DNA of 63,926 nt, filler included, from Stramenopiles sp. TOSAG23-3 (Eukaryota): NCBI GenBank assembly GCA_900128585.1. It is 13 parts of 13 records of this genome, joined end to end, with 100 filler letters (N's around TTAATTAATTAA, not from the genome) between each part and the next. Parts side by side here need not be neighbours in the genome. Positions count along the whole stretch, not along the records: positions 6,094 to 12,076 come from LT643403.1; 12 more parts are not named here. One strand, 5' to 3'. Positions 188 through 44,474 of the stretch are shown here, piece after piece; position 1 is the stretch's first letter; each line of letters opens with the position of its first letter. The notes beneath the pieces were generated by a model. That model was not told the origin of the DNA. It did no database searches and saw only the letters and a list, made by a program, of their open reading frames with translations. Both the position numbers and the translations under genes were made by a program.

Positions 188-3100
188 ATGCAAGTTGGGG
201 ATACCTACTCTGCCTTTTTGTTGGGGGGCGATCAGTTGCCCACTTGTAAGTTTGACTACAAGAAAACGTCGACAATTCGTACTAAGACCAGCGGTGTGTA
301 TTTGAATGAAGACGTCATTCAACCTCCCAGTCAAGGAAAAGCTATTCGACCCCCACAGCGGGATAGAGTTAGAAGATCGGAGGTGTATTTACACAAAGGC
401 AGAAAGTTAGTCGAAACAACATATAGAAACCGTTTGGCAAACTTAAGAAAGACCTTAACTCCTTCAAGGTTGAGTATGAGTTTGAAAAGTTTGAAAACGA
501 CGAAAAACGCTGGCGAGGAAACTGCTCCGGCGTTGCGCAAAGAGAAGCCGATCGTCGCAGAGTCTAATAGATCTGGAAATTCCATTACTCCACTGTTTAT
601 GGCAGATAATCAGGAGGCAGAACGGACAGTTTCTGACGACGGACCTCCAGAATACAAACAGGACTTCGAAACAAGTTATTTCTCGGATGATGTTGGGGTA
701 CAAAAGGAAGCACTATTAGAAGTACCATCTAATTTGGAAGAGATTTTGAGGCGTCGCTTGTCACCAGAGAACATCTTAGCTCAAGTTGCGAAGACAGCAG
801 GCTCCCTAAACCTGGCCCATTGCGGCTGCGGGGATATGTACTCTGGGATCTTAGTAAATTCCTTACAAAATTTACCAAGTATTACACGTCTAAATTTGAG
901 CGAAAACAGACTAACTTCGAAGTCCTTGAAGATGTCTTCTGTTGGATTGCCTTGCTGGATTGTTGATATAGAACTCGCGAACAACCGCCTAGGTTACGCC
1001 AGTATCAGATTGTGGAAACAATATTTCAAGAACACAAGAAATATAACTCGACTAAGTATCAGAAACAACCGAATAAGTGATAATCGTGGTGCAAAAATGA
1101 TATGTGCATTTGAGAGTTTGCCGCACTTGAAATACCTCAATATGTCTAAAAATGGCCTTGGCAATAAAAGTGCAGTGGCGCTGTCATCTCTTTTATCAAA
1201 ATCAGTGTGCTTGCAACATTTGTATTTGTCCTGGAACTACTTTCATGGAAGTGATTCACAAGTTCTTGCGAATGGGTTGTCTTCAAATATGACGTTAGTA
1301 TCTTTAGATTTATCTTGGAATAACTTGGGTGGATGCTTCATTGGAGAAGAGGAAGTGAATGAATTTTACTTGCTTGCTCATTCAATTGCTCGGCATAAGT
1401 CCTTAACACATCTAGACATATCCTCAAACGAACTTTCTGTGGACGAATGTAACAAACTAGGTTCTTACCTATCACAGAATAGGTCAATATACGGAATCCA
1501 CATTGACGGAAACCGTGGTGAAATTGGGCATACAGGAATAATAGAAGGAACAGAGGATATTTTATCGATCAAAAATATGGATGAGCTGGACGCGGAAAAA
1601 AGGGAATTAATGGCATTGAGGGTATTTTATAAACTGTATTTATTGTGGATGGAGAAAAATATTTCGCCCAATTTACTATTCCAGAAAATGAATGATGATG
1701 GGGGAGATGTTGATACCGAAGAATTTTTAGTTGGGTTGCGTGATGTCTGCGGCATAGATTTGTCGAGTGTCGAAAGAACAGCTGTTTTTGGTATGATAGA
1801 TGATGATGGCAGCGGAGAAATCTCTGCTTCGGAACTATCAAAAGCAATTCGAGATGCAGCAAGAATAGGAAGAACGAGAGATCTTTTTGAGGAAGAAGGG
1901 GAGAGTGACAATGATTTAGACATAACGGACCTTTCATATTGCCACGCTCCGAAGGGTAAAACGATCAAACCAAATAATAAAGACATAGACACAGAACTAA
2001 CGGAAAAGGTAAATTCGTCCTGCTGGATATGCGGGCGGTGGCAAGAAGAAAAGTTTGTGTACAAACTTAATTTTCCTACCGAAGAAACTGCAGCCCTTCC
2101 GGTGTACCTGTTGCATTCATATGACGGGTTTGAACAGCACAAAATGATTTGGGACTCTCACTCGAATCACTTCAGCCTGTACATTGTAGTTCCCCCGGGG
2201 TATATTAGATTTTATTTTATTGTAGATGGTAAGCAACGATTTTCAACGGATGAATTAAGTGTGGCTCTGACCATAAAAGGTTCCATTAGAGATAATCCTA
2301 CAGTTAGAAAACCCAACGAATCTCTGTGGGCAATCGCGAAACGTCGTGTTCTAAAAAAGAGATGTAATGTTCGTTACGTGGCTGAACGGAGAGGCCCATT
2401 AAACGTCTTGTACGGTTTTCCACGACACGATCAGACCAAGAAAACAAAGAAGAAGTCCTGGCTAATGCTTTGTAAAAAGAGGTTGTCGTTCACTTTGTCA
2501 AGCAGTAATTTAAAGATGCTATTAAAAGAGCGTCGAGAAGGGTTTGTCGAACAAGTTTTAGCTGGCATTGAGGACGTTGATGGTAACTCCATAGGTGCTT
2601 CCACAGGAATACAGTCTATCCTTATTGATAATTTTGAAAAACTGAGAAAAATTCATCAAATTTACATTATCAATTCTCGAGAGCTAGAAAGTTTAAAACT
2701 GCACTTTGAAAACATTTTGAAACTTGTGGAAGACTTTTCTCTCAAGGATGCACTTTTCCGAGAAGAAAATAGTGTGTTTTCAGAACTGTCGTGGACAAGG
2801 TACAAAGCGTTTTTGCTTCGTATGCAAAATGATCCGAAGACCGACTACGGCATGTCTATGCAAACGACTTTCCAATTTCTTTTGGGCTTTGGAAAATGCG
2901 GCGCAGATATAGTGCAAATACTGCAGTTTCTCTTCAATCATAATTTGACTGTTATAGTAGAGGAAAATTATTGTCCCGAATGTTTTCGAGAAAAAATGTT
3001 TTATCGGGAAGAATATCAAAAATCACTGCATCCTTTACTTTATCGAATTCGGAAAGTTTTTAAAAAGAATTCACTTTTGGAACGAAACGACGTTTCCGAA

Positions 3101-3550
3101 AAGGAAATTCCCCCTTTAATATTGCCTATGTCTACTTTCTTAAATATGTTTTGTACTGAATCGTTCGATGAGTGCGATGGTTTAACAAAGTTGTCCATAC
3201 GAGCTTCCTTCTTAGGTAGTATTGATGAACTGGATACCACGATGGTTTGTAGAGAATGCCTATACTACGACGAATTTGTCGAAGCCATTTGCCGCGTGGC
3301 CTATCAGCTGGTGAGAATCTTCTCCCAGTACTACAACGACGAAATCAATACAAATCCTGCGAATAATGTATACTGGCCCATAAAGCATAGCAGTTTGTCC
3401 ACAGAAACAGAAATTTTACCAGGGAGTAAATGTAGCTTGCTTTTCCCTGCTACAACTAAAAAAGTAGATGGTAATATATCAAAACCTCAGAATTTTAGTC
3501 TGCACATAGATGCAGTAAAATTTATTGTCGATGAGCTGGAAAATGAGTAA
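188..3550 (+). CDS. LRR (RNI-like) protein with EF-hand pair and AMPK1-CBM-like domain
   Basis: 1120-aa ORF from first ATG at 188. LxxLxLSxNxL repeats (LKYLNMSKNGL, LQHLYLSWNYF, LVSLDLSWNNL); EF-hand loops DDDGSGEISASE and NDDGGDVDTEE; CWIC...VVPPGYIRFYFIVDG resembles a CBM48/AMPK-type sandwich. Confidence 0.8.
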   Translation: MQVGDTYSAFLLGGDQLPTCKFDYKKTSTIRTKTSGVYLNEDVIQPPSQGKAIRPPQRDRVRRSEVYLHKGRKLVETTYRNRLANLRKTLTPSRLSMSLKSLKTTKNAGEETAPALRKEKPIVAESNRSGNSITPLFMADNQEAERTVSDDGPPEYKQDFETSYFSDDVGVQKEALLEVPSNLEEILRRRLSPENILAQVAKTAGSLNLAHCGCGDMYSGILVNSLQNLPSITRLNLSENRLTSKSLKMSSVGLPCWIVDIELANNRLGYASIRLWKQYFKNTRNITRLSIRNNRISDNRGAKMICAFESLPHLKYLNMSKNGLGNKSAVALSSLLSKSVCLQHLYLSWNYFHGSDSQVLANGLSSNMTLVSLDLSWNNLGGCFIGEEEVNEFYLLAHSIARHKSLTHLDISSNELSVDECNKLGSYLSQNRSIYGIHIDGNRGEIGHTGIIEGTEDILSIKNMDELDAEKRELMALRVFYKLYLLWMEKNISPNLLFQKMNDDGGDVDTEEFLVGLRDVCGIDLSSVERTAVFGMIDDDGSGEISASELSKAIRDAARIGRTRDLFEEEGESDNDLDITDLSYCHAPKGKTIKPNNKDIDTELTEKVNSSCWICGRWQEEKFVYKLNFPTEETAALPVYLLHSYDGFEQHKMIWDSHSNHFSLYIVVPPGYIRFYFIVDGKQRFSTDELSVALTIKGSIRDNPTVRKPNESLWAIAKRRVLKKRCNVRYVAERRGPLNVLYGFPRHDQTKKTKKKSWLMLCKKRLSFTLSSSNLKMLLKERREGFVEQVLAGIEDVDGNSIGASTGIQSILIDNFEKLRKIHQIYIINSRELESLKLHFENILKLVEDFSLKDALFREENSVFSELSWTRYKAFLLRMQNDPKTDYGMSMQTTFQFLLGFGKCGADIVQILQFLFNHNLTVIVEENYCPECFREKMFYREEYQKSLHPLLYRIRKVFKKNSLLERNDVSEKEIPPLILPMSTFLNMFCTESFDECDGLTKLSIRASFLGSIDELDTTMVCRECLYYDEFVEAICRVAYQLVRIFSQYYNDEINTNPANNVYWPIKHSSLSTETEILPGSKCSLLFPATTKKVDGNISKPQNFSLHIDAVKFIVDELENE

Positions 3551-4291
3551 CAAAATTACGAACAGATTAATGGAAAATTTAAAACACAATTAAAAAATAT
3601 TCTATATAAAGCTTTAAGTTTTTACGAAGTACAAAGAAGTTACAAAAATTGAATTTTTTGTTTTGTAGCTTCACATTGTTGTGTATATTTAACAATTTTA
3701 GATTTCGAAGAATCAATGACTGATATTAAAGTGAGAATTTTAAAGCATACTTTGTTTTTTTTTTAATTATAGTCTTCTAGTAAACTTGAGTGGTTTAACA
3801 TCATCAAATTGAAATATTTACTTTAATAAAACAAAACAATTGGCTGCTATTATAAAAAAACAAAATATATAGTATGTTTTAAGACTCTCATTTTAAATCC
3901 AATACTGGCTGCTATTATAATAAGTAGATTTAAAAAAACAAGAAAATTGGCTGTTATTTAAGTAATTAAAATTAATGTACTGCGAACTGAAATCTAGATT
4001 TAGACATTCAAGGTTTACATTCCTTCATGAACTGCGAATTTATCTTTGCTCTTTTATGAATAATTAAAATTTATCTTCAACACATGTATAACATTTTTTG
4101 CTCTCTTCTAATATTTAGTAGATAAACTAAATTAGGTTTTTTTTTGTAGTTTTACATTTGTTTGCATCTGAGTCCTTCTTTGATATTCCTAAAAACTTAC
4201 GTAAAGCTTAAAAAAAACGTAAAACAGCCAGTTTTTTTTTAGGTTCATCTTACGTTCGTCGTACGTAAATTAAAACTTATCTTTCGCTGTC

Positions 4292-5992
4292 TTATAGCAG
4301 TGTTGTTACCTTTGCTTTTCGGTTTGGTCTGGGACTGAACGATCCCTTTTTACCATAAGTATTTTTTGAAACACGTTTGCCTTCGAAGGCTTTCATATCT
4401 GTGCCTTTTCTGAAGGTAATTAAATTTCTCTTCAAAATTGGCTCGGCCCATTTCGCTTCAGTTGTTGCTTCATTTCCAACTTCAGAACTCTTCTTCTTAG
4501 GGATAAGAGACTGGCTTGTTTTCGGATTTTTTATGATAATTCTTGCACTGGATGGCCTTGTCTTTGGTAACACGTTTTCTTTCGTGGGATGCACGTTGGA
4601 CTTTTGGGCCTTTTCCCCCATGACAGATATTTTGGAGATATTTTTCCTTCGTTTTGTCACTCTACTTGATTTCGGTCTTGTTTTTACACGGGAATCAAAA
4701 TGTGGTTTATTAAACTTGTGAATATTCGACGCTCTTACGTAATTCTTTGGGCGTGCTATAGTGGAAAAATTAATTGGGTGAAACGATAGTGTAACCGCTT
4801 CCCACGCCGCATCGGGCAAATCGTTCGCACTTTCAGCCTCCGTCAGTTTGTTAGATAATATCTTGTGGCGAGCAATCTCCCTATCCCAAGGTGACTTTTT
4901 GGGCTTACGCTCAGATTTTGGTGTATTCTTTGCCTTCGTGTATTCCATCCCAGATATATTTTTTACTAATTCTACAGCAGCATCACAAGCGTTTCTCCAG
5001 TGCAATTTGCTTCTGGTGGTCTGTATATCCTTACGCCTTTTCCAGGCGAACTTTCTTTCTTTCCAGTGTTTCATTACTAGTGTTTTGCACTTATTCATAG
5101 AGTCTTTTTGAATTTCAAAGAATACATTTTTGCAGAGCATTTTCCAAAACGACAAGATCAAATACTGTGAAGAAAAGTACTGCCATTTGGACGACGCAAA
5201 ATGTTGATCTTTTGTTGCAGCAGCACGCAACAGATTAGAAATCATTTTTCGCATTTGACTAGGATCAGCTGTTTTCGAAGGAGAAAGACACTGCTGACCT
5301 TGTAATGTCCACGGGTTTGCATCTTCGTTTGTCAAGAATGTCCACCCACCACGTTGATTGCCCTCCTCGTTAGCTACTTTAAAATTGTCGACGGATCCAA
5401 GATACGCTTGTGTGCCAACAGTTCTCTCATTCTTTTGGTCTGTTTGGCATCCTGATTCGACAGGGACACTTCCAATTTTCTGCGTTTGCACGGAAGTGCT
5501 TATTGTTTCTGGCGTCGAAGTAACAAAGTACTTAGGAACTGATTCGTGCATTTCTGTGGGCTCGTTCATTGAAGAGCGTGCCTTCCTTAGCTCGCTTTCA
5601 AGGGTTTCCATTCTTTTCAACAATCGGGGGATAATTTCTGCTGCCCGCAAAAATGGTTGTGAGGCCCCATTAATTCTTGCTGCAACATGTTGTCTGACAA
5701 TATTGAACAAACGCATATGGTCTTCGGGAACAAATTCCCCAAGTGATTTTTCGAAACCGTTGATAGTCGCTTCGCCTATTTTCAAAAAGATTGCAGGGTC
5801 CAATTCGTCTATTTCTTCATCTAAAATGACATTATAACAGGAAAAAAAATTCATTTTGGTACATTCCAAAGTGTCTTGTGATGAAATGTCGGGCGACTGC
5901 TCTTCTATTGGGTTGGCAACAGCCGCTATTATCAGGGATTCTGTTGATGTTGCTGCATTAACTGTGGCATGCACTGTTTCCTTTGATATCTC
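4292..5992 (-). CDS. Hypothetical coiled-coil/basic protein, 5' partial
   Basis: Frame of >560 codons is open to the contig end; coding-like composition; no recognisable family. Confidence 0.65.
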   Translation of the reverse strand, partial: EISKETVHATVNAATSTESLIIAAVANPIEEQSPDISSQDTLECTKMNFFSCYNVILDEEIDELDPAIFLKIGEATINGFEKSLGEFVPEDHMRLFNIVRQHVAARINGASQPFLRAAEIIPRLLKRMETLESELRKARSSMNEPTEMHESVPKYFVTSTPETISTSVQTQKIGSVPVESGCQTDQKNERTVGTQAYLGSVDNFKVANEEGNQRGGWTFLTNEDANPWTLQGQQCLSPSKTADPSQMRKMISNLLRAAATKDQHFASSKWQYFSSQYLILSFWKMLCKNVFFEIQKDSMNKCKTLVMKHWKERKFAWKRRKDIQTTRSKLHWRNACDAAVELVKNISGMEYTKAKNTPKSERKPKKSPWDREIARHKILSNKLTEAESANDLPDAAWEAVTLSFHPINFSTIARPKNYVRASNIHKFNKPHFDSRVKTRPKSSRVTKRRKNISKISVMGEKAQKSNVHPTKENVLPKTRPSSARIIIKNPKTSQSLIPKKKSSEVGNEATTEAKWAEPILKRNLITFRKGTDMKAFEGKRVSKNTYGKKGSFSPRPNRKAKVTTLL

Positions 5993-5993
5993 G

Positions 5994-6093
5994 NNNNNNN
6001 NNNNNNNNNNNNNNNNNNNNNNNNNNNNNNNNNNNNNTTAATTAATTAANNNNNNNNNNNNNNNNNNNNNNNNNNNNNNNNNNNNNNNNNNNN
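5994..6093. other. Artificial contig-joining linker N44-TTAATTAATTAA-N44 (first of 12)
   Basis: Identical 100-nt linkers with stops in all six frames at 5994, 12077, 18159, 24238, 30314, 36388, 42447, 48504, 54553, 60598, 61708 and 62818. Contig lengths never increase along the window (5993 down to 5945, then 1010, 1010, 1009). Confidence 0.98.
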
Positions 6094-6095
6094 AC

Positions 6096-9000
6096 GAAAT
6101 TTATAGTTTTTCTTTCACTCTGGACGAAGATGGAACGCTGCAAGGGCAAGGCTATGATTTCGGGACCGCTTACGGGAATTTGACGGTCTCCCAACAGCTA
6201 CATATTCAAGGCGGTCAAATTAACTTGACAGGGAGTAAAACAAAAACTATTGTAGAGTTACGTTCAAATGAAAGAGAAAGTATTGCCTTTCAGACTGCGT
6301 CAGGGAAAAAATTGTTATCCTTGAATACTTTGGACGGGGTGGATACAGTAAACGTCAACTCTGGTTTGACCGTTTCTACCGAAAATTCGGCAGAAACTGT
6401 GATTGCAGTAAACGCTACTGCCCCAACCGCGGATATCTTCGTCGTCAACAAAGACGGCTCTCCTGCTTTAAAAGTTGATAAAAACGGTGTTGTCCACATA
6501 TCTGAGCAGGGCATCCAGCAGCGTGCTTTTTTAATAACACCGACTAATGTTGGTGCTCAAATACCACACAGCACGAGCTTAGTTCAAGTGTTGTCTGGGC
6601 AAGGGAACATAAGTTCTTCTTCGTTCGGGATCAGATTGCCCCTAGTATCGCCCGGGCTTTACATCAAGATTGTAAACACTGACAAGCAGGTCTTCAACCT
6701 GTTCGCTTACAACTCAAACAACGTTTTAAACGGCGGAGGAAACACAAAAGGCGTACTTGAGTCGGACCTTGTCGTTGAATGCCTTGGCATCAGCGTAACA
6801 GATTGGGTATGTAGAACGCAAGATATTACTGGCGCTGGGGCAATGACACGGGCAGGGTCTAAACTTACCGCGCGGATGGCGAACTATTGTTTTCGGCGCG
6901 GACCAAGCGAATGCTTGCTTCTTCATCGCAGTTTTCCTTTGTTTTTGATGGGGTCAATGAGACTGCTGCGGACTTTCGCGCAGGAGATTCAAGCACAATG
7001 TCGTTTCTAAAGATGGATTCCTTTACGAAGCGTCTTGTCGTCGGTCCAGGCAATCAAATTAACAAGACGACATTTCAGACTAAAACTTTAGATTTTTCTC
7101 CCCAAGAAACAAATTTTCTCTTACGTAATGATAAATTTTTTGCGCTAGAAATCACTAACGGTGACAGAGAAAATTCTTCGTTCGTACGTATTGACACAAA
7201 AAACAACGAGCTACTATTAGGAGAAGGATCAGCTGTGTCCAAAACGAAATTTATGTCTAATATACTCGACGTAAGCAGCCAAAATACAGAAATCAACATC
7301 GGAGCAAATTCATCTCGTAGCCTTGACTTTGTGAGTGGCTCTAGTGCTACCTCTTCGTACTTGCGTATGGGTATTGATACCATTTCTTTAGGTCTTGGAT
7401 CAGGGATAGAAAAAACAATTATTGGCACCTCAAACGTTAATATGAAAAATGTATCTTCACTCGAAGTCTCTAACTTCAAAATTACTGGGTCTGATCCCGA
7501 AGCGACTTCGTACTTTGAAGTGAACGAAGACACAGAATCTATCACTTTGGCCAAAGGGTCCAACGTTCGCCAGTTGTTCATGAACTCTCGTGACGTCATC
7601 TTTGATAAACAGGCAACTCAATTTATGGTTAGCGCAAATGAAAGCCATGCTTTGGAAATCTTGCAGGGAGTCGATGCTGACATGGGCTCATTCATACGGA
7701 TTGATACTGGTATTAAACCAAGCGTAATTCTGGGCGAGGGTACAAATGTATTGGAAACTAGAATTGAGACGAAGCTGGTCTTAAATGGAGAAAGTATCGA
7801 ATCAAAGAAGGCTATTAATCTTGAATCAGACCATGCGAAAGGTGTTCGAGTAGAAAACGTCTCTTTTATTGATGGCAAAATAGTAGAGCCTAAAATCAAG
7901 GATAGCCTAACTGTGAAAAAAACTGGCGAAGCGAACAAAAACGATAACATCTTATCAGTTGGGGGTATCGAAGAAGAATACTTTACAATTCGAGGAAATG
8001 GAGACATAAAGGCAAACACTTTCGTTGACGGGATGAAAGTTTCTGCTGATGGAAGTACAGCTGCTCTTAGTGTTCAAGTGGAGAATTTAACAACGGGCAG
8101 TGGTTTGCAAGTGATTGGAAACACAAAACTCTCCGAAGGAAAGTTAGTGGATCTCCAAACTAGCTCCATGTATGCTCAAAACCCGATGTCATTGCAAGCC
8201 AGCAAAATGATGGGAGGCAAGGCATTCCGTATCTTGACGCCATCGCTGACGTCTGGCAGTGCCCTTCAGGTGTCATCTATGGACGGAAATAACTTAAAAA
8301 AGGCGTTAAGCCCTGTTCCTGTCAGAGTGTGGAAGGATGGGACAGTAACTGTTGTACCAGATCTCAAACCCCGTTTGACACATGGAGAGTACGTTACGTT
8401 GTCTAATTGTACGGTGGCATCAAACCTTCGGGAATTGGTGCTCTCCGTTGTTCAAAATGTCTCCAAGAAGTCCACATGCACAGAAATGATACATTTATCG
8501 TCTTACGCCGTGCAGGACTATATATCGGCGGACAGTTTGGTTCTTCATCTCAGCGAAAAGGATACGTTTACTGAAAACGAAAACGTATCCTTGTTGGGCT
8601 GTGAGATAGCAGGAAACAACGGGCAGTACAGAATCAAGAACATATCCAACACGACCCTCGTTTCGACATGCATGACAAATCCAATTGCTAGTCATTCCTC
8701 GTTGGACCTGTTACAAGATTATAAACTTGTGGTCGAAAGTTCTTTTCGAGATTTATTCTCAACAAACGACATAGTCAATCTGGAAAATTGTAGCAAAGCC
8801 TGGAACAATAAAAAATACGTCGTGATTAATCACACCGCTCCTGTTTATAAAGCATACGACTGTTTAAAAAGCGTTTCAGTAATGTCGAAGGTCCTGGTTG
8901 ATGAAGTGGCAGCGTCACTGTCGGATGGGACCTTGTACGTTCAAGCGAATGTGAAGGCCCAGTTTCAACCAACGGATAAAGTAGGGCTGTCTGGTTGCTC

Positions 9001-12000
9001 AAATAGCTCGCTTAATAGTGACAAAGCAGGTCCATATAAAATATTGTCTGCTGGTGATAATGCTTTTCGAGTACACCAGTGCATTGATTCCTACTGTCGG
9101 AATGGAATATGTAACATGTCGATGGATTGCGCCGCCTGTCAATTAGCGCAAGGAACATCTGTTCCAGAAAATTGCACGTCGGGGAGGGAGCCATACAACA
9201 TATCGTACTCATCAGTATGTCAGAACTCCAGCAGGACCTTTTGTCAGGCATTTTCTTACCTTAAACTAGGTACTACGCAAGGGGAATCTCTGGGAAATCA
9301 TGAGATCTCAATTAATTCGACGTGTACAATATCTCCATTTGTTGACGAGGTTCAACTTAACAATTGTACGAACAATACCATGTGCAGCTCTGTATCCGAC
9401 TGCCCAACTAACTTCAGTGTAAGCTACAAAACAAGTGCATGTAAAAATACAACCACTTCGTTTTGTGAAGAATTTTGGGGCATTGATCTTGTTGACATAT
9501 CTGGGGAAACTTTGGATGGATGGAACTCATCAGAATCAAGTTGTCGGATTGAGCGTCCTCACATCGAAAAACATTGTTCAATATCAGATTCAAGCGGCAA
9601 CTGCTTAACAAATGGCATATCGAGCTGTGGCAACTTCAATCACAAGTACGCGAAATCTTGTTCTAGCTCTCCAACAACGTTCTGTCATACGTATGGAGAA
9701 ATTTTAATTGAAGGTTTATTGGGGCAAAGCGTAACTCTACCAAATATTTCGGATAGTCAATGCAAGATTAGAACAGACCGAAAAAAGAGGGTAGAAAAAT
9801 ACTGTGACTATCCAGATATTTGCAGCAAAGATGATTGTGAAAACGGGACCTGGATCCACGAGTTTGTCGAGCCCAGTCGGTGCGTGTCTAATTTGACAGT
9901 GTTCTGTGAGCCATATGGTGAGCTAAAATTGCAAGATCCGTACTCACCTGACCCTGTTGAGCTTCATGATGATTCTACATGTGTTGCATCTCACAAAGGT
10001 GGGGTTTTTGTAGATGTAAGTGCCAGCCGTCAGCGCTCTGGGACAATTTTAGGCCTATACGCAGATTCGCTAGAAGATGGAAATGCACTGTTGATAAGTA
10101 ATAATGGCGCTAATTTGACGACAGGATCATTGCTTGTGTTAGAAAGTGGGGCCACGTCCCCAACAAACGGTTTGTTGCGTTTACGTGGTAAAGCTGTGTC
10201 TATTGTAGGCGGGCACTCAGGCACGGATACCACAGGGTCATTGTTGCATGTTGCCTCATCTGCACCAAATGGCAAAGCAGTAGAAATTATTGGGTCGTCT
10301 AACTTAGGAGTAGGCAAACTTTTAGACATTTCAACGTCGTCAAAATCAGCGAATAGCGCCATATCATTGACAGCAAATGAAATGGTGAGCGGAAGTCTGG
10401 TTTCAATAGATACACAAAAGCTAGAAAACGGGACAGCGCTTTCCGTATCTGGGGGTAACGGCGATCCTATGCACGAGGGGTCTTTGGTCCATGTAACGTC
10501 GGATACAATTTCTGCAGATGTGGGTATGATGAGACTATCTGCTCATAATATAAAAGAAGGAAAAATATTAGCGGTAGAAGCCGGTAGTTTAGTAGACGGA
10601 AAGGCAGTTTCCATTACTGGTGGAAGTACAAAAATGAAATCTGGGTCTTTGTTACACGTTTCTATAGGAGACGCCGCACTACGTTCAGGGAAATTACTAG
10701 ATATTTCATCCTCCTCCTCGGTGGCTCATAATCTGGTATCTGTGAAAGCCAACAATGCAAATGTTGGTAAGATTGCTAAGATTTCGGCGCACAGTTTGAC
10801 AACTGGGTCTGCTCTTGAAATTTCGTCTCATTCAGGATCAAGCATGATGCCGCCTATAACAGAAAAGGATGTTGACGTTGTAAATGCAAATGGGACCATA
10901 TTCGTCCACCAAAACGTCCGTGATCTTTTTGTAAGTGGTGAAACTGTTCAATTATCTTCCTGCTTAAACACTGGGAACAACGGGGAATATATTATTGACG
11001 ATATAGTAAAAGCAACGAAACTATATAATTGCACTCAGGTGATTACATTAGGAAAGTATTCGGTTACTACCACCATATCTGAGAAGAGGTTTGTTGTTTC
11101 GAAAGAGGTTCATGACTTGTATGATACAGGTGATAATGGAACTGTATCAGGCTGCTCCGCGTCCAACAATGGACTGTACACTGTCAGCACAAGAGGCAAA
11201 ATATACAAGTCCTTTAAATGCATGAAAAATGTTACGATGGAAACTACGGATAAAAAGAGCGTTTCAGCTTCTACGGTCAACGGTACCCTGTATGTATCGA
11301 ATGATATTCGGAACCACTTTCAATTGTATGATAACGTTAATTTATCTAGTTGCGGGGCATCTGCTGACAATTCCACATACACGATTGTACGTATTGGGTC
11401 TATTTACCAAGTGTTCACTTGCAAAAATTCTAGTTGCCAAAATGGAACCTGTAGCAAATTGATGAAATGCGGGTTTTCTGGGGAGGAGGCTCATAACGTT
11501 TCCTATTCCCCGGTTTGCCAGAATAGTACTGTTACATACTGTAACCCATTTTCTTTCATAAAAGTCCAAGACTGCACTGAAGGGGCATGCAAAAACATTT
11601 TAAATATAGCGAACTCTGAAACTTCTACATGCAGGATTGCGAAGGTCGATAATGTAGTGCAAAGTAACAACTGTGTGAATAATACAAATTGCTCAGGTGT
11701 TCACGATTGCCCAAGCACGTTTGTAACTGCTTACAAAGATCAATGCCAAATGAATAGCAACACGTTCTGCGAATTGAACTATTTTATCAAAATGCAGGAA
11801 TGGAACAATCAATTAGAAGAGGGAGATACCTCATGCAACATATCAAAAACTGTGCATGCGCCCCAAACATGCGATGGCAACGTATTCTGCCAATCACCCC
11901 AAAACTGCAGTAACGGGGAAATGTTAATATCGTACCCAACTAATTGCCTCAACAGCTCGTCAACTTTCTGTGAAGATTCCAGTTACATAACGCTGGGATC

Positions 12001-12076
12001 TTCAATCAGTGCCCTACCCGTAACTTTTTCACCCGAACAAAATAGTTCTTGCAAAATTTTCACAACTGGCGGTAAG
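6096..12076 (+). CDS. Giant repetitive, probably extracellular protein (beta-rich repeats plus Cys-rich nested modules), partial at both ends, frame change near 6880
   Basis: ORFs 6180-7010 and 6887-12076 overlap and share sequence style, and both are open to the contig ends. They join either by a 1-nt indel near 6880 or by a phase-0 GTATGT...CGCAG intron at 6807-6931. Many NxS/T sequons. Confidence 0.8.
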
Positions 12077-12400
12077 NNNNNNNNNNNNNNNNNNNNNNNN
12101 NNNNNNNNNNNNNNNNNNNNTTAATTAATTAANNNNNNNNNNNNNNNNNNNNNNNNNNNNNNNNNNNNNNNNNNNNACCCTAATCCTATCTCGATTTTTT
12201 AATTTGATTTTTAGTTTCGTTTCGTCGTGGTGGATGATTATTAGTCATCACAGAGGAATTATTTTTAAAAACAAGAAAATTGGCTGTTATTTTTATTCCT
12301 ATTCCAATGATAATATTTCTTTTAAAACATACTCTATATAATTTGTTTTTTCAATTGACGATGACAAATCACTCTGATACAGATTTAATTACGATGAAAT

Positions 12401-13225
12401 TTATGTTCTTCGCACAGGGTTCAAATGAGACGCCCCCTGTCCGTTTTTAACCTCATTGTCCCCGCTTGGAGCCTCATCTTGCGATTTTAACTCAATGACA
12501 CTCATATCCCAGGTATTTCTATTTCTTAAATTGTCGATGTTGGATTCAAACAATTCAAGGTTTCCAATGTCCGTTCCTGCATTCTTACGCTGCTGCCACC
12601 ACTTTCTCATGAAAGCCAAAGCAAGTGCGGCCCCTAAAATAGTTGCTAGTATCGCAATAGCAGCTGTCATACCATCGTCGTCATCCTCATCCGATCTGCT
12701 GCTGCTACCACCTGCTCTTGCATCAGCTGTTGGACCGTCAACGAATCCCCCTTCGGGAGAATCAGACACTTTCGTCTCTGAAACTTCGATTTTAGCCGGG
12801 TCTTTAGTGACCGAGATCGTGCGAGGTGGTACGCCAATTTCGACGTTCTCGGACACGATCAACGATCGGAGCACTGCGGTAAAAGCACTGTCTTCGGTCA
12901 GCGCCGAGGCTGCCTCCACGCTCGCAGTCCGCGAAGATGTTTTCACCTTGTAATGGACCAGTGCAGCCACTGAATCCTCGTTATCAGCGCGCCGCCTGGC
13001 TCTCAAAGACACTTCCTGAGCGGACACGTCGTACACATCGTCCACACTGATCCCGTCAATACCGCTGACGACGGCCTTTTTGAACACAGTAATCAATTCT
13101 GCATTTCCGTTAAAGTCTCCGGCTGTCTGCCCCAAGATTCTAGTCTCAGCCTGTACAGAAAGGTTTCCTATTTTTCTCTCTTTTAAGAGAAAACGTACCA
13201 ATATACAGGTACAGAGCACCGTCAT
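12401..13225 (-). CDS. Single-pass membrane protein with SEA-like juxtamembrane domain (5' end uncertain)
   Basis: VQAETRILGQTAGDF...RARRR...VHYKV...SALT pattern; TM AAIAILATILGAALALAFM followed by RKWWQQRK; cytoplasmic tail. No clear signal peptide; possible splice acceptor TCTGTACAG at 13151. Confidence 0.7.
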   Translation of the reverse strand: MTVLCTCILVRFLLKERKIGNLSVQAETRILGQTAGDFNGNAELITVFKKAVVSGIDGISVDDVYDVSAQEVSLRARRRADNEDSVAALVHYKVKTSSRTASVEAASALTEDSAFTAVLRSLIVSENVEIGVPPRTISVTKDPAKIEVSETKVSDSPEGGFVDGPTADARAGGSSSRSDEDDDDGMTAAIAILATILGAALALAFMRKWWQQRKNAGTDIGNLELFESNIDNLRNRNTWDMSVIELKSQDEAPSGDNEVKNGQGASHLNPVRRT

Positions 13226-13607
13226 TTTTACTTACGTTTTTCGGTCGTCCGATTTTGGCCATTTGGAAAAAATTAGAAAATATCCAAAAAAAAGCATGGG
13301 AGTAGCATCAAAACTTACGTTTTTCGGTCCAATTTAGTAGGGCCTCCAAAGTAGAACTCCTCACTCCTCCATCCAACTATTCCGACCACACACACCACAA
13401 CACATATGGATACAAAAAGAAAGATAATACATTGTGATTTCAACGCTTGACGTAAGAACCATTGCATTGAATTGAGTGTACGCAAAACTTTCACTATTCT
13501 TACAACCTTAAGTTTCATACTGCAATTTTGATTGATTAGTTAACATTCACACGTTTGTTCCTCCTCCTTTGTTCCTCAGAAGAAAACCCATACCCATACC
13601 TGCAAGA

Positions 13608-16600
13608 ATGCCAAAGAAGAAAAAGAGAAACAAGAAAAAGAGAAACAAGAAAAAATCCGAACCCCCCAGCCGAATGGGCCTTGATCTAGAAGCGATGATT
13701 GGGCTTGAAAGGATGCAAAATTCTATAGAAGATATGATTTTGAATATGGGCGGTGGAGAACCGGACCCCTTTATGGTCGCAATGTTGGAGCAGTTGAGAG
13801 GTGGGCGAGCTACGTACGATGGTGACGGGGAAGGTGTGAAGGGTCGGCATTCCGACCCACACAATATCAAAGGGTGGGTATGGCTGTTGGCGGACGATGG
13901 TCAAACTGCGGCGTTGATGGGCATATCCGGAGGCTTTGGGGTCTTTTTGTACCAGCAGATGACACCTGGTGCGTGTGAAGATTTTTTTCATAGTTACAAT
14001 CTGGAAATGCTCTCCGCTTTTGGAGGAATATTTTGGTGGTCCTGTCTCATAGTAGATCCTGCTACTGGTATGGGAAACCATGCAACTTGGCCAGATGATG
14101 AGTTTACCCCACTGCCAAAGGAAGGGACCTTGGAATTTTCACCAATAAAAATGTCTTCCCAACACAAAAACGAGTTTATCGATGCCTTCCTGGAGTATTC
14201 GACGTTGAACAAATACAAAGGTGCGGCGGAGACGTGCACTGCGATGCATGGGTACCAGTCGTTTTACGAACATACACCCCTTTTTATTGAAAACGATGGA
14301 GTGAAGCAGTACAATTACACTCGGGATTTTGAAGAAGGGCACGACAAAGAGATGAACCGAGTGTACAGGTACACACCGCTACAACATTGCCGAGCTTATA
14401 CCATGATCTTGTGCCTTTGGGGTGGGCAAATTGCGGGAATTATCCGATCTATTGCAGAGTCGAGTAATGCGGAATGCCCCAAGCGAAAAGATTTTCTAGA
14501 CCTTTGGGCAAATTGTGCTAGGTTTGAAGGCTACGTCCGACGAGTCGTTGACCTCTACCTACATCTCGACGACCTAGTAAGAAAAACTGGCCAAAACCCT
14601 GTCATAGTAGGATCAATGATACTGTTTTTATTTGACAGTGTAGCGGCAAGTTGCCGTCATCACGAAACCGCTAGAAAAGTGTGGAGTAAAATTGCATTGG
14701 AGCATTCCATCCACCAGTTGTCCGTGAAACAACAAAAGGAACTGTATTCGAGTTTTTTTATGCCTGGCCTGTATAACAGTAGAGGGTACGAATTCGAAAT
14801 TGAAGAAAAGCCACCAAAGGGTGAAAGTAAAAAAAGCGGAGCCAACGCCGTTGAACAGGAGCAAGGTATGTTGGAAAAAAGTGGAGCCAAACCCGTTGAA
14901 CCGGGGCAAGGTATGTTGGAAAAAAGCGGAGCCAACGCCGTTGAACAGGAGCAAGGTATGTTGGAAAAAAGTGGAGCCAACGCCGTTGAACAGGAAGAAG
15001 GTATGTTGGAAGCCAAAGCCGTTGAACAGAAGCAAGGTATGTTGAATTCTTCAGGCAACGCTTCGTCTTTGGCGGAGAATGTTACTTACACGTGCGTCAA
15101 ATGTTCCAAAACAGTATCGGTGCGCAAACAATGTGCACGGTGCCAACGCGTATATTACTGCTCCAAAGCATGCCAAAAAGACGATTGGCCGAATCATAAA
15201 AAAGTGTGTAAGCCGCCATCCAGATGGGGATATACCATCAATGAAAATGGCATGCTACCTGCTGGGCACCGTGAGGAGTTGAATTCAGAGGATTTGTACC
15301 CGGGAATGTTTTTATGGGTGGATGTTACAAACTATGACATTTTCTGCAAAGAGGACAAGGACGATATGCTTTGCGAGAAAAAAAGAAGGATCAAAGGATG
15401 GCAACAATGCCGTCTTGAGACAAGGGCAAAGAGTTTCGATGCCGCAGGAGTAAATCGTTTTGAATTCCTGGACGAGGAAAATGCTCGCTATGGTTATGCG
15501 CATAACGTAAAAAAGCACGACATGAGACAATTGACAAAGGGAGAGTACTCGTTGGCTGTTGCGGCTGAAATAGGCGCGCTTAAGAAAAACGGTGGCGTTG
15601 ACATGGGAGACATGTACACGTATTCCAAAGAAGCAATTGCGTATGCCCTGGATAAAAACATGATCACAAGTAGCACTAGAATGGGGTGTGACGTTAACAC
15701 TGGGATGAAGCTGTACATGAAATTTTCCGGTATGATCAATCCAGTTGCATTGCGACTCTATGCAAAGTACAATTATACATTTGATTCTGAAACTTTGAAT
15801 TGGCTGGCTCAAATCCATGCCGCTGAGGACGACGTTCGTTTTATAAAGCGCCTTTTGAATTTATCCAGTGTCCCTGAGAAAGGTATTGTGTACGACGATG
15901 GGGCCATGCTAAATTTGCACACAATACTTGAAAACGTTGCCAAAGGTGGTTCATGCCAGGTCTTGGAATTCCTGTTGACAGAGTCTGGTGTTAATTTTTT
16001 GGAAGGGGATACAAGGCCGTTTTTTCTTAATCATAGGGGCACCCCATTGGACAAAACTTTGTCTAGAATTGCAAAATTTGGATGGACATACAAAAAGTCG
16101 CAATCTTTATCGATAATTCATAAACATGTGAAGTGTATCGAATTGTTGTTGCAACATGGTGCAACAATAACAGAGTCATGTATTAGCTGGTTGTGGCCTA
16201 GCCCGGTGGCTCCTCCAATCATTTTGGTGTCCATGATGAAAAGCAAAGGCCAGGAAACGTTACAAAAACTCCTTAGTTTTTTTTGCAATCCATCCGACTG
16301 GTCCCAGGGAAGGGCGCAAGCAGCAAATCCTGATGAACAATATTATTGGAGTGTAAACTTGTGGACGAGGAGTGATTGGCCTATATTTACATACACAGAT
16401 TGTATTATTGAATTATTGAAAGCTGGTGCCGATCCATTGCAACAATGCTATTCTTTTGTAGAGATTAAAGCAAACGACGAATACGAGTACCGAAGGAGTG
16501 CGAAGGGATACTTGACTAGTATTTTAAGGGGTCAAGATAGAACTATAATTAGTACAGATGGTGAAACGATTCTTCACCGTTTGAATCGCTTGTTTCCGAA

Positions 16601-26540: not shown

Positions 26541-28121
26541 TTAGATACTGGCCGCACCAGCATACGCTTCTTCCTCTGACTTTATATCAAAATTACGACG
26601 GCCAGCCGTGTCCGCAGGAACACCAGCCGCAGAATACTTGCAAAGTTCGACCATCAGCATTGCGTCTTCATCCCCCCCATCGGCAGCGCCCTTCGACCCT
26701 TCCTCCACCACATCCTTACCTGCAGTCTCTACTGACAGGAACAGGCTACAAATTGCCCCGCACGCGTAGAGTCCACCAAAAACAGTGGTAACGTGGATGA
26801 ACGAGTACTTCATCAAGGCGGCTGCTAAATATGGCGCTACGACTGGCGCAAAACGGTGAACAGTACTGCACATAGCGAGCCCGTTGACCCGAAACGAGGT
26901 GGGAAACACTTCTGGGGTGTAAGTATACAGCACGGCTGTGGCCTGCGACGTCGACTTCAGCACTGGCAAAACGATCAGTATCGCATTCACGGCGGTAATG
27001 TGGCCTAGCACGACAGTGCCGATGCCAGCTGCAAGCAGCAGGGACATCAGGAGCACACGACGGCCAAAGTTAAAAGCGAACGCAATTGAAATGTACAGTG
27101 TACCAAGTGCATCCCCGAGAGACATGAAGAATGCTGCGAGGTAAGCGTTGTGCATGGGGTCTTTGCCCCCCCCGGTCAGAGTTGTGCTCTCGGCAATGTA
27201 CAACGGCACCCACGAGAAAATGTTCCCCCCGAATGCGTTAAAAAACCAGCACAGCAGCAACGGAATAAGCGTTTTCAGAATATTCGGGTCGCTCAACTGC
27301 TTCGCGAAAGTATCCTGCGAGACGTTCTTCTTGTTTTGGTTGGGCGTGGTCATGTTCTCGACTGTTGGTGTCAGCTCTTCCGTCAAGTCTACCTTGTTGT
27401 ACTTGGAAATCTCCAGCAAGCAGTTGACGCACTCTTTGATCTGGCCCGAATGCAGAAAATAGCGAGGCGACTCCGGGGTAGTCACCAGAAGAATCAATGC
27501 TGGAATGATGGGCGTGATTGTAAGCATCAGCATGCGCCTCCACCCTAACAGTGGAATCAAGTACATCCCAAGGGCGACGCAGACCATCCCCCCTACACCG
27601 AAAAAAAACGCAACAATGGTCAATGCAATGCCACGAACGTTCTTTGGCAAAAATTCGCAAAGGTACGTCGTGGAGATGACGATGTTGCCGCCGTACCCGA
27701 CTCCCAGCATAAGCTGCAGGGCAGCCATAACAGGCATAGACGCTGCGAATGCGCTCGCAAACCCAAATACTAAAATGATCAACAAACAGATCAGCATGGA
27801 GGGTTTGCGACCAATAATATCACTACTCTTTCCTAACAAAACGGCACCTATAAGCATTCCAACACTAATGGCGGACCCCAAAAGTGCTAACTGGGCGTTG
27901 TCGACCTTCCACTCCTTCTTCAACAGCGGAAACAGCAGCGGGATAAGCGCCGTGACCATCGCTTCGATAAAGTTTACTAGGGCGCAGAGGGTGAACAGCT
28001 TCGTCTGTGTCTTTCCGAACCCACAATGGTTCAGGACACCATCTAAAATCTGCCACGGCCCCTTTTTACCACCCAGCAGCGGGGCGTTGTCCCCCTCGTC
28101 GTCTACAAAACCACCCCCCAT
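26541..28121 (-). CDS. MFS transporter, SV2/SVOP-like sugar-porter-related
   Basis: About 12 hydrophobic helices; SDIIGRK motif A, EFLPKNVRG, PESPRY, YTPEVFPTSFR, VET. Confidence 0.93.
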   Translation of the reverse strand: MGGGFVDDEGDNAPLLGGKKGPWQILDGVLNHCGFGKTQTKLFTLCALVNFIEAMVTALIPLLFPLLKKEWKVDNAQLALLGSAISVGMLIGAVLLGKSSDIIGRKPSMLICLLIILVFGFASAFAASMPVMAALQLMLGVGYGGNIVISTTYLCEFLPKNVRGIALTIVAFFFGVGGMVCVALGMYLIPLLGWRRMLMLTITPIIPALILLVTTPESPRYFLHSGQIKECVNCLLEISKYNKVDLTEELTPTVENMTTPNQNKKNVSQDTFAKQLSDPNILKTLIPLLLCWFFNAFGGNIFSWVPLYIAESTTLTGGGKDPMHNAYLAAFFMSLGDALGTLYISIAFAFNFGRRVLLMSLLLAAGIGTVVLGHITAVNAILIVLPVLKSTSQATAVLYTYTPEVFPTSFRVNGLAMCSTVHRFAPVVAPYLAAALMKYSFIHVTTVFGGLYACGAICSLFLSVETAGKDVVEEGSKGAADGGDEDAMLMVELCKYSAAGVPADTAGRRNFDIKSEEEAYAGAASI

Positions 28122-30414: not shown

Positions 30415-32316
30415 GAGCGCGAAGAATTGCTCATTGTCCGGGAGGCCGTTCATGCGATCACGCACTTTCAAGAGCTCGAGGAGCAAATGGCTCTTCGGGT
30501 GCAGGCTGCATGGAGGGGCAAAAATGGTCGTTTGGCGTACCAGATGAAAATGCACGCGAAGCGAGAACTTGAGGCAGAGCAATTGGCTGCTACTCTGAAG
30601 ATGCAGCGCCTTTTTCGTGGCCATACGGGTAGAAAATTATTTTTGAAACGGAAAGAGCAAAAAGTAAAAGACGATTTGAAGGCCAAATACGTAAGAGAAC
30701 GACAAAGGGAATTGGATCGAGAGCGCTGGTACCGTGAAGCCGAAGAAGTAGCTCTTCGAGAAAGCATGATGGAAAAAAAACGGGCCGAAAGCGAAATAGA
30801 AAACGCGCGTTTGCGGATGGAAAAAGCCAAGCTGGAAGCAGAGCAAGCCAAGTACGAAGCCGACCAAAAGCGATTACACGCTGAGGCCATGGGGTGGGGC
30901 CCCGGTGGCAGTGGCGACCAAGCAGCACACCCCAGCGGTTGGATGATGGTCCCAGATCAGGACAACAACATCTACTACTACAACGTCAAAACAGGAGCGA
31001 GCCAATGGGAAAGACCTGCAGAACTGGGAGGAGCTGAAGCCACGAACGAAGATGACGCATGGATAGAGCTTCCATCCGGCGACGGAAAAGTGTATTGGTA
31101 CAATACCATAACCCATGCGTCGACGTGGGATGATCCCAACGCTGCCAACGATCGGATTCCGAAATTCCAACCAACCTTTTGCGACTGTGATGCCTGCGAT
31201 GGGAAAGAAACACGGGCCGTCAGAGAATGTCAAGACTGTAAAAAGAACTTTTGTCTAGCATGTTACATTGAGTTTCACAGGACCAAACGACGTGCCGAAC
31301 ATGCATGGGAACCCGTGCTTCAACCATCTGACATCACGCTTACGTGCAGCAATTGCCCAGGAGTGGCTGAGCGGTTTTGTGAAGACTGCGACAAGAACTT
31401 TTGCGAAAACTGTTACTTGTGGGATCATAGCGAAGGCATCAAAAGCCAACATGAATCGAAAGCGTTTATACGCGGGGCGCCCATTTGTATAGAATGCGAA
31501 AATAGAATTGCAGAAGTTCAGTGCGTCGAATGCAGCGACGTTTTCTGTAAATCGTGCTACAAAAAGCAACACCGTTCTGGAACAAAACGAAACCACACTT
31601 CGAAACCAGTCCAAGTCTTCAAAGAAAACTGCGCAGAAAATGAAGAATATTGCATATCTTGTGAAATTCGAGTTGCTGATCGTGCCTGCGATAGTTGTGG
31701 CGATCCTTATTGTAAAAAGTGCTTCGAAGCTGATCATAGCAAGGGATTCCGCAGCGAACACACGTGGACCCCATGGGATAAGCTAACTGGTGGCAGAGAC
31801 TGGGTTGAAATCAACGATGAAGAAAGCGGCCGCGTTTTATATTTCAATATCAAGACGAGGCAAACCACCGAGAAGAAACCTCTGGGTTTAATGTCTGGCA
31901 AAGAGCGGGCCTCTGTGAAAAAACGGCAAGCCGCCGAGCGAGAAATGAAAGTTCGTCTAGAAAAAGAAGCCGAGCTCCTGGGATTGAGAGAAAAGATGCA
32001 AGAAATGGAGAAGTTGGCACAGGAGCAAGAAGAACAAATTAGTGAACTAGCCCGAGCCAGGGCTCCAGAGGAAGAAAAAAAGAAAGGTTGGTTTCGTCGT
32101 GGAAAGAGCAAATCGCAAAAGAAGAAAGACGCAAAACTGAAGAAAGGGAAAATGAAAGACTTCCTAAAAGACAGACTAATTACCGCGGAGAGACAGAAAG
32201 AACTAGACGATGAGAAGAACAGTTTTGGTAGCGAGTTGTACGAGCGAAACGTTCTTGACAGTTTAAGTATTTCAATGCCAGAAACTGAAAAGAAAGGGGA
32301 AAAGAGAAGGCGATGA
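30415..32316 (+). CDS. IQ-motif, WW-domain and tandem B-box zinc-finger protein, 5' partial
   Basis: IQ motifs VQAAWRG and MQRLFRG; three WW domains (IYYYNVKTGASQWERP, VYWYNTITHASTWDDP, LYFNIKTRQTTEKKP); four B-boxes CxxC...CxxC...H...H. Confidence 0.9.
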   Translation, partial: EREELLIVREAVHAITHFQELEEQMALRVQAAWRGKNGRLAYQMKMHAKRELEAEQLAATLKMQRLFRGHTGRKLFLKRKEQKVKDDLKAKYVRERQRELDRERWYREAEEVALRESMMEKKRAESEIENARLRMEKAKLEAEQAKYEADQKRLHAEAMGWGPGGSGDQAAHPSGWMMVPDQDNNIYYYNVKTGASQWERPAELGGAEATNEDDAWIELPSGDGKVYWYNTITHASTWDDPNAANDRIPKFQPTFCDCDACDGKETRAVRECQDCKKNFCLACYIEFHRTKRRAEHAWEPVLQPSDITLTCSNCPGVAERFCEDCDKNFCENCYLWDHSEGIKSQHESKAFIRGAPICIECENRIAEVQCVECSDVFCKSCYKKQHRSGTKRNHTSKPVQVFKENCAENEEYCISCEIRVADRACDSCGDPYCKKCFEADHSKGFRSEHTWTPWDKLTGGRDWVEINDEESGRVLYFNIKTRQTTEKKPLGLMSGKERASVKKRQAAEREMKVRLEKEAELLGLREKMQEMEKLAQEQEEQISELARARAPEEEKKKGWFRRGKSKSQKKKDAKLKKGKMKDFLKDRLITAERQKELDDEKNSFGSELYERNVLDSLSISMPETEKKGEKRRR

Positions 32317-44326: not shown

Positions 44327-44474
44327 NNNNNNNNNNNNNNNNNNNNNNNNNNNNNNNNNNNNNNNNNNNNNNNNNNNNNNNNNNNNNNNNNNNNNNNNNN
44401 NNNNNNNNNNNNNNNNNNNNNNNNNNNNNNNNNNNNNNNNNNNNNNNNNNNNNNNNNNNNNNNNNNNNNNNNNA
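44327..44474. other. Internal scaffold gap (N run with no stop linker)
   Basis: 148 N with no TTAATTAATTAA core. Confidence 0.95.

Follow-up and report, generated by a model that had tools for sequence, protein, structure and literature searches.

Equal-number arrays of two cysteine-rich unit types in a giant orphan protein of an uncultured marine stramenopile

The DNA analysed here (the window, 63,926 nt from Stramenopiles sp. TOSAG23-3, assembly GCA_900128585.1) consists of contigs of about 6 kb chained by N44-TTAATTAATTAA-N44 linkers, and its contig at 6094-12076 carries a gene with two cysteine-rich blocks. In each block, units of one type (A) are followed by the same number of units of a second type (B), four and four in block 1 and three and three in block 2, and each block takes the place of the same turn in an otherwise cysteine-free repeat. 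This unusual architecture is real, and the protein that carries it is an orphan. The original prediction ascribed this order to recursive insertion of a domain into its own loop. We tentatively favour, at slightly less than probable, a hairpin-like side arm, in which two autonomous domain types would project from a repeat fibre at a single turn and the geometry of the arm would set their equal counts.

Unit architecture and insertion site of the two blocks

Delineation by eye and with hidden Markov models (HMMs) resolved both blocks within a single open frame, which extends over 1730 codons from position 6887 (aa 1) up to 12076 (aa 1730), where the contig ends. In block 1 (8318-9994), the A units number four (aa 478-732) and are followed by as many B units (aa 733-1036); block 2 (10862-12067) has three of each type in the same order (A at aa 1326-1512, B at aa 1513-1727). 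The A unit has about 63 aa and two invariant cysteines, the B unit about 70 aa and six cysteines patterned C-x4/5-C-x5-C ... C-x7-C ... C. The arms, assigned by HMM and cysteine pattern, and their units are as follows:

8318..9082, plus strand: A arm of block 1, four units of ~63 aa with 2 Cys each
8318-8506 (aa 478-540), plus strand: block 1 A1, 2 Cys
8507-8695 (aa 541-603), plus strand: block 1 A2, 2 Cys
8696-8890 (aa 604-668), plus strand: block 1 A3, 2 Cys
8891-9082 (aa 669-732), plus strand: block 1 A4, 2 Cys
9083..9994, plus strand: B arm of block 1, four units of ~70-84 aa
9083-9334 (aa 733-816), plus strand: block 1 B1, 8 Cys
9335-9553 (aa 817-889), plus strand: block 1 B2, 6 Cys
9554-9772 (aa 890-962), plus strand: block 1 B3, 6 Cys
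9773-9994 (aa 963-1036), plus strand: block 1 B4, 6 Cys
10862..11422, plus strand: A arm of block 2, three units
10862-11062 (aa 1326-1392), plus strand: block 2 A1, 2 Cys
11063-11248 (aa 1393-1454), plus strand: block 2 A2, 2 Cys
11249-11422 (aa 1455-1512), plus strand: block 2 A3, 2 Cys
11423..12067, plus strand: B arm of block 2, three units
11423-11641 (aa 1513-1585), plus strand: block 2 B1, 8 Cys
11642-11845 (aa 1586-1653), plus strand: block 2 B2, 6 Cys
11846-12067 (aa 1654-1727), plus strand: block 2 B3, 6 Cys

For a cross-block check, HMMs built from the units of one block were run on the other block, with 200 shuffles of the protein as control. The block-1 A model recovered exactly three units in block 2 (25.6-39.5 bits; shuffle maximum 9.1) and the block-2 A model four units in block 1 (10.4-31.3 bits; shuffle maximum 7.2). 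Likewise, the block-1 B model found three units in block 2 (15.9-28.8 bits; shuffle maximum 5.8) and the block-2 B model four units in block 1 (8.2-41.0 bits; shuffle maximum 9.4). B3 of block 1 alone falls under the shuffle maximum (8.2 vs 9.4 bits), and its assignment rests on the cysteine pattern. The A models gave no significant match on the B regions, and no A or B units were found elsewhere in the window or in the metagenomic loci L001 and L002, which are described below. The predicted AAAABBBB and AAABBB order with matched counts is thus borne out by unit delineation and cross-block HMMs; moreover, all sequence strings quoted in that prediction are present in the open reading frame (ORF), as are the shared entry motifs LTSGSALQVSS and LTTGSALEISS and the GG exits.

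The cysteines follow the same division. All 60 cysteines of the 1730-residue ORF lie inside the two blocks, with none in the other ~750 residues, and their number is even in each of the 14 units (two in A, six or eight in B). The first B unit of either block carries the extra pair. In block 1 it follows Cys 3 (aa 751-763), in block 2 it sits between Cys 5 and Cys 6 (aa 1563-1568); with positions differing in this way, the additional disulfide loop on the hinge side seems to have two separate origins. The hinge between the last A and the first B unit is a linker of four residues in both blocks, and the last A cysteine is followed by the first B cysteine at a distance of five positions, compared to 11-14 between B units. 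N-x-S/T sequons are denser in the blocks (3.1-4.3 per 100 aa) than outside (0.7-1.7).

The backbone that hosts the blocks is free of cysteine and built from units of 13-16 residues (G-x-h-h-x-h plus a turn), which are arranged in a four-unit super-repeat:

Super-repeat unit a: NGLLRLPANSVKE
Super-repeat unit b: GKILSVEAEGLVG
Super-repeat unit c: GKAVSIVGGHSGTDTT
Super-repeat unit d: GSLLHVASSAPN

At two places, the long turn from c to d (7-9 residues, e.g., GGHSGTDTT or GGSTKMKS) is replaced by a block. Block 1 is entered through GSALQVSS, its junctions being ...SLTSGSALQVSS, then the block, then GGVFVDVSA, and block 2 through GSALEISS, with ...SLTTGSALEISS, then the block, then GGKLLQMEA. By sequence, the strand-turn repeat is regular, both inserts (415-560 residues) sit at the equivalent turn and the register is kept. 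An equivalent entry was found in the related proteins P0003, P0007 and P0008 and an equivalent exit in P0003 and in P0013, a protein from another assembly in which the repeat carries on after the exit of block 2 (GGKLLQMEAAQQTSGTIIHVNARS...). The parts of the gene outside the arms are:

6094..6871, plus strand: N-terminal portion of this gene, read in a different frame (58-letter gap in the run contigs X6, X3 and X7; ORF of L001)
6887..8245, plus strand: Cys-free N-terminal region grading into the strand-turn (solenoid-like) repeat, without Pfam family or PDB relative
8246..8278 (aa 454-464), plus strand: entry motif LTSGSALQVSS, a type-c unit cut before its long turn
9998..10003 (aa 1038-1039), plus strand: exit GG of block 1; at the adjoining GVFVDVSA, a type-d unit takes the repeat up again
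10004..10795, plus strand: Cys-free strand-turn repeat between the blocks, collapsed here
10796..10828 (aa 1304-1314), plus strand: entry motif LTTGSALEISS of block 2
12068..12076, plus strand: exit GGK of block 2 (GG = aa 1728-1729), contig end

Judged by its periodicity, this backbone is probably a beta-solenoid fibre. If the repeat forms a continuous solenoid, each block would have to leave and re-enter the fibre at one point.

Independent assemblies, seawater runs and relatives

The gene and its blocks recur in independent data. L001, a 14.25-kb locus from a metagenome scan, holds the same gene with the same blocks (ORF 7667-14248, 2194 aa, 3' open), and P0013 (2444 aa, ~99% identical) contains both blocks as well. 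The giant host protein that had been predicted is confirmed, with 1730 codons here and 2444 aa in P0013. In addition, the stretch was found in 20 sequencing runs from 14 studies, of which eight are labelled RNA. Contigs of four of these runs (two RNA-labelled, two DNA, from different studies) were compared in detail and share at least 99% identity over the blocks. The A-to-B junction is spanned by record 18 of X6 (RNA library; colinear at 8304-9859 with 0 differences), record 9 of X5 (RNA library; colinear at 8888-9723) and record 22 of X7 (DNA; colinear at 6431-9940), and none of the four runs has a joint inside the blocks. These RNA contigs are compatible with expression, and transcription of the gene is likely; it is short of proof because RNA libraries can contain DNA.

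An A-then-B order could in principle also stem from a chimeric join during amplification or assembly, and the source assembly is in fact fragmented and error-bearing. The gene is truncated at both ends of the window's contig, which begins about 21 codons past the start codon and for this reason misses the signal peptide (the L001 ORF opens with MAMQLSLRRLALVAVTIVLFIHEIYS, a signal-like N-terminus, and a signal-like N-terminal peptide is seen in P0003, too). Three small deletions add to this. Since 58 nt are missing at 6871/6872, as evident from L001, P0002, P0013 and the contigs of three of the four runs (X6, X3, X7), the frame of 6094-6871 differs from the one downstream; further deletions compared to other assemblies or run contigs comprise 57 nt at 10184/10185 and ~32 nt at 10663. 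Moreover, the contig collapses a tandem-duplicated fibre repeat of roughly 250 aa, leaving 274 aa between the blocks as compared to 554 aa in P0013. L002, another locus from the metagenome scan, follows the gene up to B1, breaks inside B1 and continues there with a copy of the upstream neighbour in inverted orientation (3333-4432). This looks like inverted amplification or an assembly chimera, and it cuts short the NCBI protein P0002 (1048 aa, ending ...CAACQLPI). However, all deletions and the repeat collapse of the window's contig lie outside both blocks, L001 and P0013 carry the same blocks, and RNA-labelled as well as DNA runs bridge the A-to-B junction at this high identity without any joint. 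An artefact is consequently most improbable as the origin of the order and is already refuted for block 1.

Relatives of the protein are rare. A HMMER scan of 1.84 billion representatives with block 1 returned only eight proteins at E <= 0.001, all of them marine and fragmentary. The single named one is P0003, which derives from MAST-4 stramenopile data; P0005 is incomplete and covers part of B1 followed by B2-B4, and five others are short fragments, so that complete, verified blocks come from one species only. A search of a 5.8-billion protein set with the unit profiles gave no new relatives (one protein for B and four for A, all already known). The DNA behind P0003 was looked for in viral contigs and that of P0005 in prokaryote genomes, and none was found in either. 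Those parts of the literature on MAST (including PMC8163842) and on mastigonemes that were available to us hold nothing on the protein.

Fold of the units and arrangement of the arms

In order to judge whether A and B represent complete domains, one A unit, paralogous to those of block 1, was modelled alone with AlphaFold2 (AF2) from an 11-row alignment. The mean predicted local distance difference test score (pLDDT) was 73.1 and the predicted template modelling score (pTM) 0.51, with 10-residue means of 82, 90, 82 and 89 over residues 11-50. The model suggests that the A unit is probably an autonomous small beta-barrel. Structural alignment with VIA-align against 48,161 chains gave 95 at Z >= 2, the best rows being phage or pyocin baseplate hub and tail chains at Z 3-4, and several contiguous small barrels align with the model. 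Among them is an E1 N-terminal fragment (4p22_B, residues 218-273, which we take to be the FCCH domain) with Z 3.7, a root-mean-square deviation of 2.2 over 51 residues and 22% identity. The resemblance to FCCH and phage barrels noted in the original prediction recurs in this way across methods, yet every one of its signals is below threshold: Pfam E1_FCCH (PF16190) reaches 13.5 bits on block 1 A1 (cut-off 29.5; E=0.08; aa 483-507 only) and none of the seven A units when scanned singly at E <= 5, and the nearest named cluster in the Atlas is a phage "E1 FCCH domain-containing protein" with a score of 0.88. Two kinds of candidates were rejected, namely a PDB match of the A profile to designed "Bagel" propellers (E=6e-8), which sums eight identical 3.3-bit matches of a perfect repeat, and stray Pfam matches in one of the seven units each (AIRS 0.038, DUF7465 0.033, Nro1_C 0.056).

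For the B unit, the profile gave no PDB match at E <= 10 and the Atlas offered no lead on the B arm (best score 0.80). Pfam found no family on the 2444 aa of P0013, and the PDB no relative of the protein. By its sequence, B is a six-cysteine module of ~70 aa without detectable relatives, and A and B define two unannotated domain types.

These properties bear on the idea of recursive nesting, according to which a single discontinuous domain would have entered its own central loop again and again, with A as its N-terminal and B as its C-terminal half. Matched counts in both blocks, a contiguous innermost A-B pair with its four-residue junction and a between-block mirror correlation of r=0.85 (see below) are what such a process could leave behind. 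However, A alone yields a confident compact core that aligns with contiguous single-domain barrels. With two cysteines in A and six or eight in B, each unit is able to close its own disulfides, and since the counts differ and are even per unit, A and B look like two domain types and probably not like halves of one fold. Furthermore, the shared history expected for A(i) and B(n+1-i) leaves no mirror in the within-block distances (rank 47 and 78 of 144), in a comparison weakened by saturation at 20-30% identity. The "half-repeats" of the original prediction are not supported, and we consider nesting in this strict sense improbable. On domains inserted into repeat proteins in a nested or recursive way, nothing related was found in the portions of the literature accessible to us.

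The mirror comparison was based on distance matrices of the seven A and the seven B units, evaluated over all 144 within-block permutations with BLOSUM distance and identity as measures. For all 21 distances, the mirrored assignment A(i)-B(n+1-i) gave r = 0.68-0.73 (rank 1-2) and the parallel one ranked at 100-114. For the 12 between-block distances, the mirrored assignment reached rank 1/144 with both measures (r = 0.85) and the parallel one rank 88-108. Between the blocks (b1, b2), units match from the hinge outward (b1A4~b2A3, b1A3~b2A2, b1B1~b2B1, b1B2~b2B2), and the one-unit difference in length lies toward the base on both arms. Conservation between the window and P0003 amounts to 65% for A1, 31-36% for A2-A4 and 67% for B4, and that between the window and P0005 to 55% for B4 and 31-35% for B2-B3; the outermost A1 and B4 are hence about twice as conserved as the inner units.

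A side arm folded as a hairpin could unite these observations. The gene would encode a giant secreted protein (at least 2444 aa) of an uncultured marine eukaryote, presumably a flagellate, with a fibre made of the Cys-free 13-16-residue repeat, whose longest turn (c-to-d) is substituted by a Cys-rich block at two sites. From there, the A arm would run outward as n small FCCH- or phage-hub-like beta-barrels of ~63 aa with one probable disulfide each, the chain would turn at the tight four-residue hinge, and the B arm would return beside it as n six-cysteine modules (n = 4 in block 1 and 3 in block 2), so that A(i) could pair laterally with B(n+1-i) and the chain re-enter the fibre at its exit point. 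Equal counts would in that case be a geometric requirement of arms of equal length and not a trace of recursive self-insertion. The pair of blocks may go back to one block that was duplicated as a whole together with its flanks, after which each arm changed by one unit near the base. The out-and-back chain projecting from a fibre, as originally proposed, fits the shared insertion turn, the hinge-outward alignment of the blocks and the conserved A1 and B4. As to its role, we favour adhesion or contact with prey by means of a glycosylated projection locked by disulfides, in which the hinge tip, with its extra disulfide loop in both blocks, would be the exposed end of the arm; lateral A:B pairing and an extracellular role are both inferred from sequence features, and a role in mastigonemes is only a thought.

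Several points weigh against such paired arms. The nine within-block distances are unmirrored (mirrored assignment at rank 47 for BLOSUM and 78 for identity of 144; parallel at 124 and 143), in a test that is weak with units of 17-35% identity. Consequently, the mirror signal comes from between-block comparisons only and largely restates that the blocks are colinear copies. Given that the blocks are copies of each other, their matched counts represent one or two observations, not many. The basal length difference on both arms fits paired arms, but about one in four independent losses of one unit would produce it by chance, and A1 and B4 could owe their conservation to each merely packing on its own adjoining fibre segment. 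The gene model of P0003, if real, would mean that A and B counts can be unequal, as it has four A units, then the first three cysteines of B1 fused to the tail of B3, and then B4. On the structural level, no chain among the 48,161 aligned with the A model at Z >= 5, and Foldseek gave nothing in PDB or BFVD at E <= 0.001 (three PDB and 46 BFVD matches at E <= 10). AF2 of the whole block 2 (nine-row alignment) was unusable (pLDDT 39.1, pTM 0.21, B parts ~30), including 36 repeat residues with a pLDDT of 33-37. The host repeat has no relative in Pfam or PDB, and its solenoid fold and continuity across the insert are read from sequence periodicity only. A predicted complex of b1A1 (aa 466-545) and b1B4 (aa 960-1040) scored 0.00, with an uncertain fold of the partner, and is uninformative either way.

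An alternative option could be that the units are lined up like beads on a string, i.e., a linear A array followed by a B array would space independent fibre segments, with unpaired arms and counts that are equal by coincidence via block duplication. The predicted autonomy of A, the even cysteine count in each unit type and within-block distances without A-B coupling are in line with this, as are the paralogy of the blocks, by which 4/4 and 3/3 are not independent, the unequal counts in the P0003 model and the fact that this analysis did not demonstrate A:B contact. However, a linear array requires two separate one-unit changes that restore equality between 4/4 and 3/3, and it sits poorly with both blocks at one super-repeat turn, with a repeat that resumes in register, with an A(last)-B(first) linker that is much shorter than those between other units and with strong conservation limited to the two outermost units. 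Furthermore, the B1/B3 hybrid of P0003 has four cysteines, lacking two of the six, and joins non-equivalent positions of two B units; because this join breaks the register and costs two cysteines, a called intron is suspected, and the hybrid looks like a gene-model artefact. We regard the linear array as less likely than the hairpin but as a serious rival.

Known systems, significance and other genes of the window

The closest likeness of the A unit is to E1 FCCH (PF16190) and to phage or pyocin hub and tail barrels, which it resembles in size and predicted barrel; A units differ in carrying a conserved Cys pair and in forming tandem arrays in a secreted eukaryotic protein. Beta-solenoid fibres with a domain inserted in a turn are represented by autotransporter passenger domains and phage tailspikes. 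They share with the protein described here the regular strand-turn repeat, a large excursion at one turn and a register that is resumed, whereas its host repeat is without detectable relative and a putative solenoid, and the insert is an array of 415-560 residues with two domain types instead of a single domain. Known nested or discontinuous domains, such as split PH domains, have another domain lodged within one fold, usually at one level. The A(i)...B(n+1-i) pairs are bracket-nested in sequence in a comparable manner, but the "halves" look like complete domains here and the depth would be three to four.

With regard to the principle of the arm, the closest working analogue, non-homologous, is the stalk of streptococcal antigen I/II (SpaP, SspB), where A-repeat and P-repeat arms flank a turn and pair into a long stalk on a surface protein (PMC7732690). 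In that stalk, an alpha-helix makes up one arm and a polyproline helix the other, and the tip bears a globular V domain. In a hairpin, the arms here would instead be strings of globular disulfide-bonded domains inside a fibre turn, without a separate tip domain. No homology to the A, V and P regions of antigen I/II was found, as no Pfam family matches the 2444 aa, and the likeness extends to the principle only: equal-number arrays are observed here, whereas arm pairing is a proposal. In its complete form, this would be an undescribed design of a rigid side arm with n barrels out and n six-Cys modules back, paired 1:1, disulfide-locked and held in one turn of an orphan solenoid, in which the count sets the length of the arm and the arrays change in step. 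We put this forward as a possibility that is still on the doubtful side.

If the hairpin is true, it would provide a natural case of geometry forcing equal copy number on two different domain arrays. This would amount to a rule of repeat evolution that can be tested, and to a modular way of building projections with a defined length. Should the linear reading hold instead, the gene simply encodes a new mosaic extracellular protein. The occurrence of the gene in seawater metagenomes and RNA libraries of many studies suggests that the protein may occur in abundance on the surface of an uncultured and ecologically important flagellate that feeds on bacteria. To our knowledge, the molecules that such flagellates use for prey contact are largely unknown.

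Upstream of the gene, L001 contains a divergent neighbour (554-5896, minus strand) with a 1780-aa ORF and Ephrin_rec_like Cys-rich repeats (E=1.6e-10), which probably codes for another secreted or surface protein.

The linkers of the window are located at 5994-6093, 12077-12176 and 11 further sites, and a plain gap of 147 N lies at 44327-44473. Because the contigs were concatenated artificially, genes flanking a linker need not adjoin in the genome. An Rfam scan of the window gave no match. Another large orphan is found in a different contig:

37104-42446, plus strand: ORF of 1781 codons without a Pfam family at E <= 1e-5

The other contigs encode eukaryotic families, including LRR, zf-MYND, WW/B-box, MFS and PHAF1. 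Three of these genes, coding for the MFS, WW/B-box and PHAF1 proteins, fit a eukaryotic, protist source:

26541-28121, minus strand: MFS sugar transporter
30427-32316, plus strand: WW plus B-box protein
56518-58137, plus strand: PHAF1 (E=5e-77)

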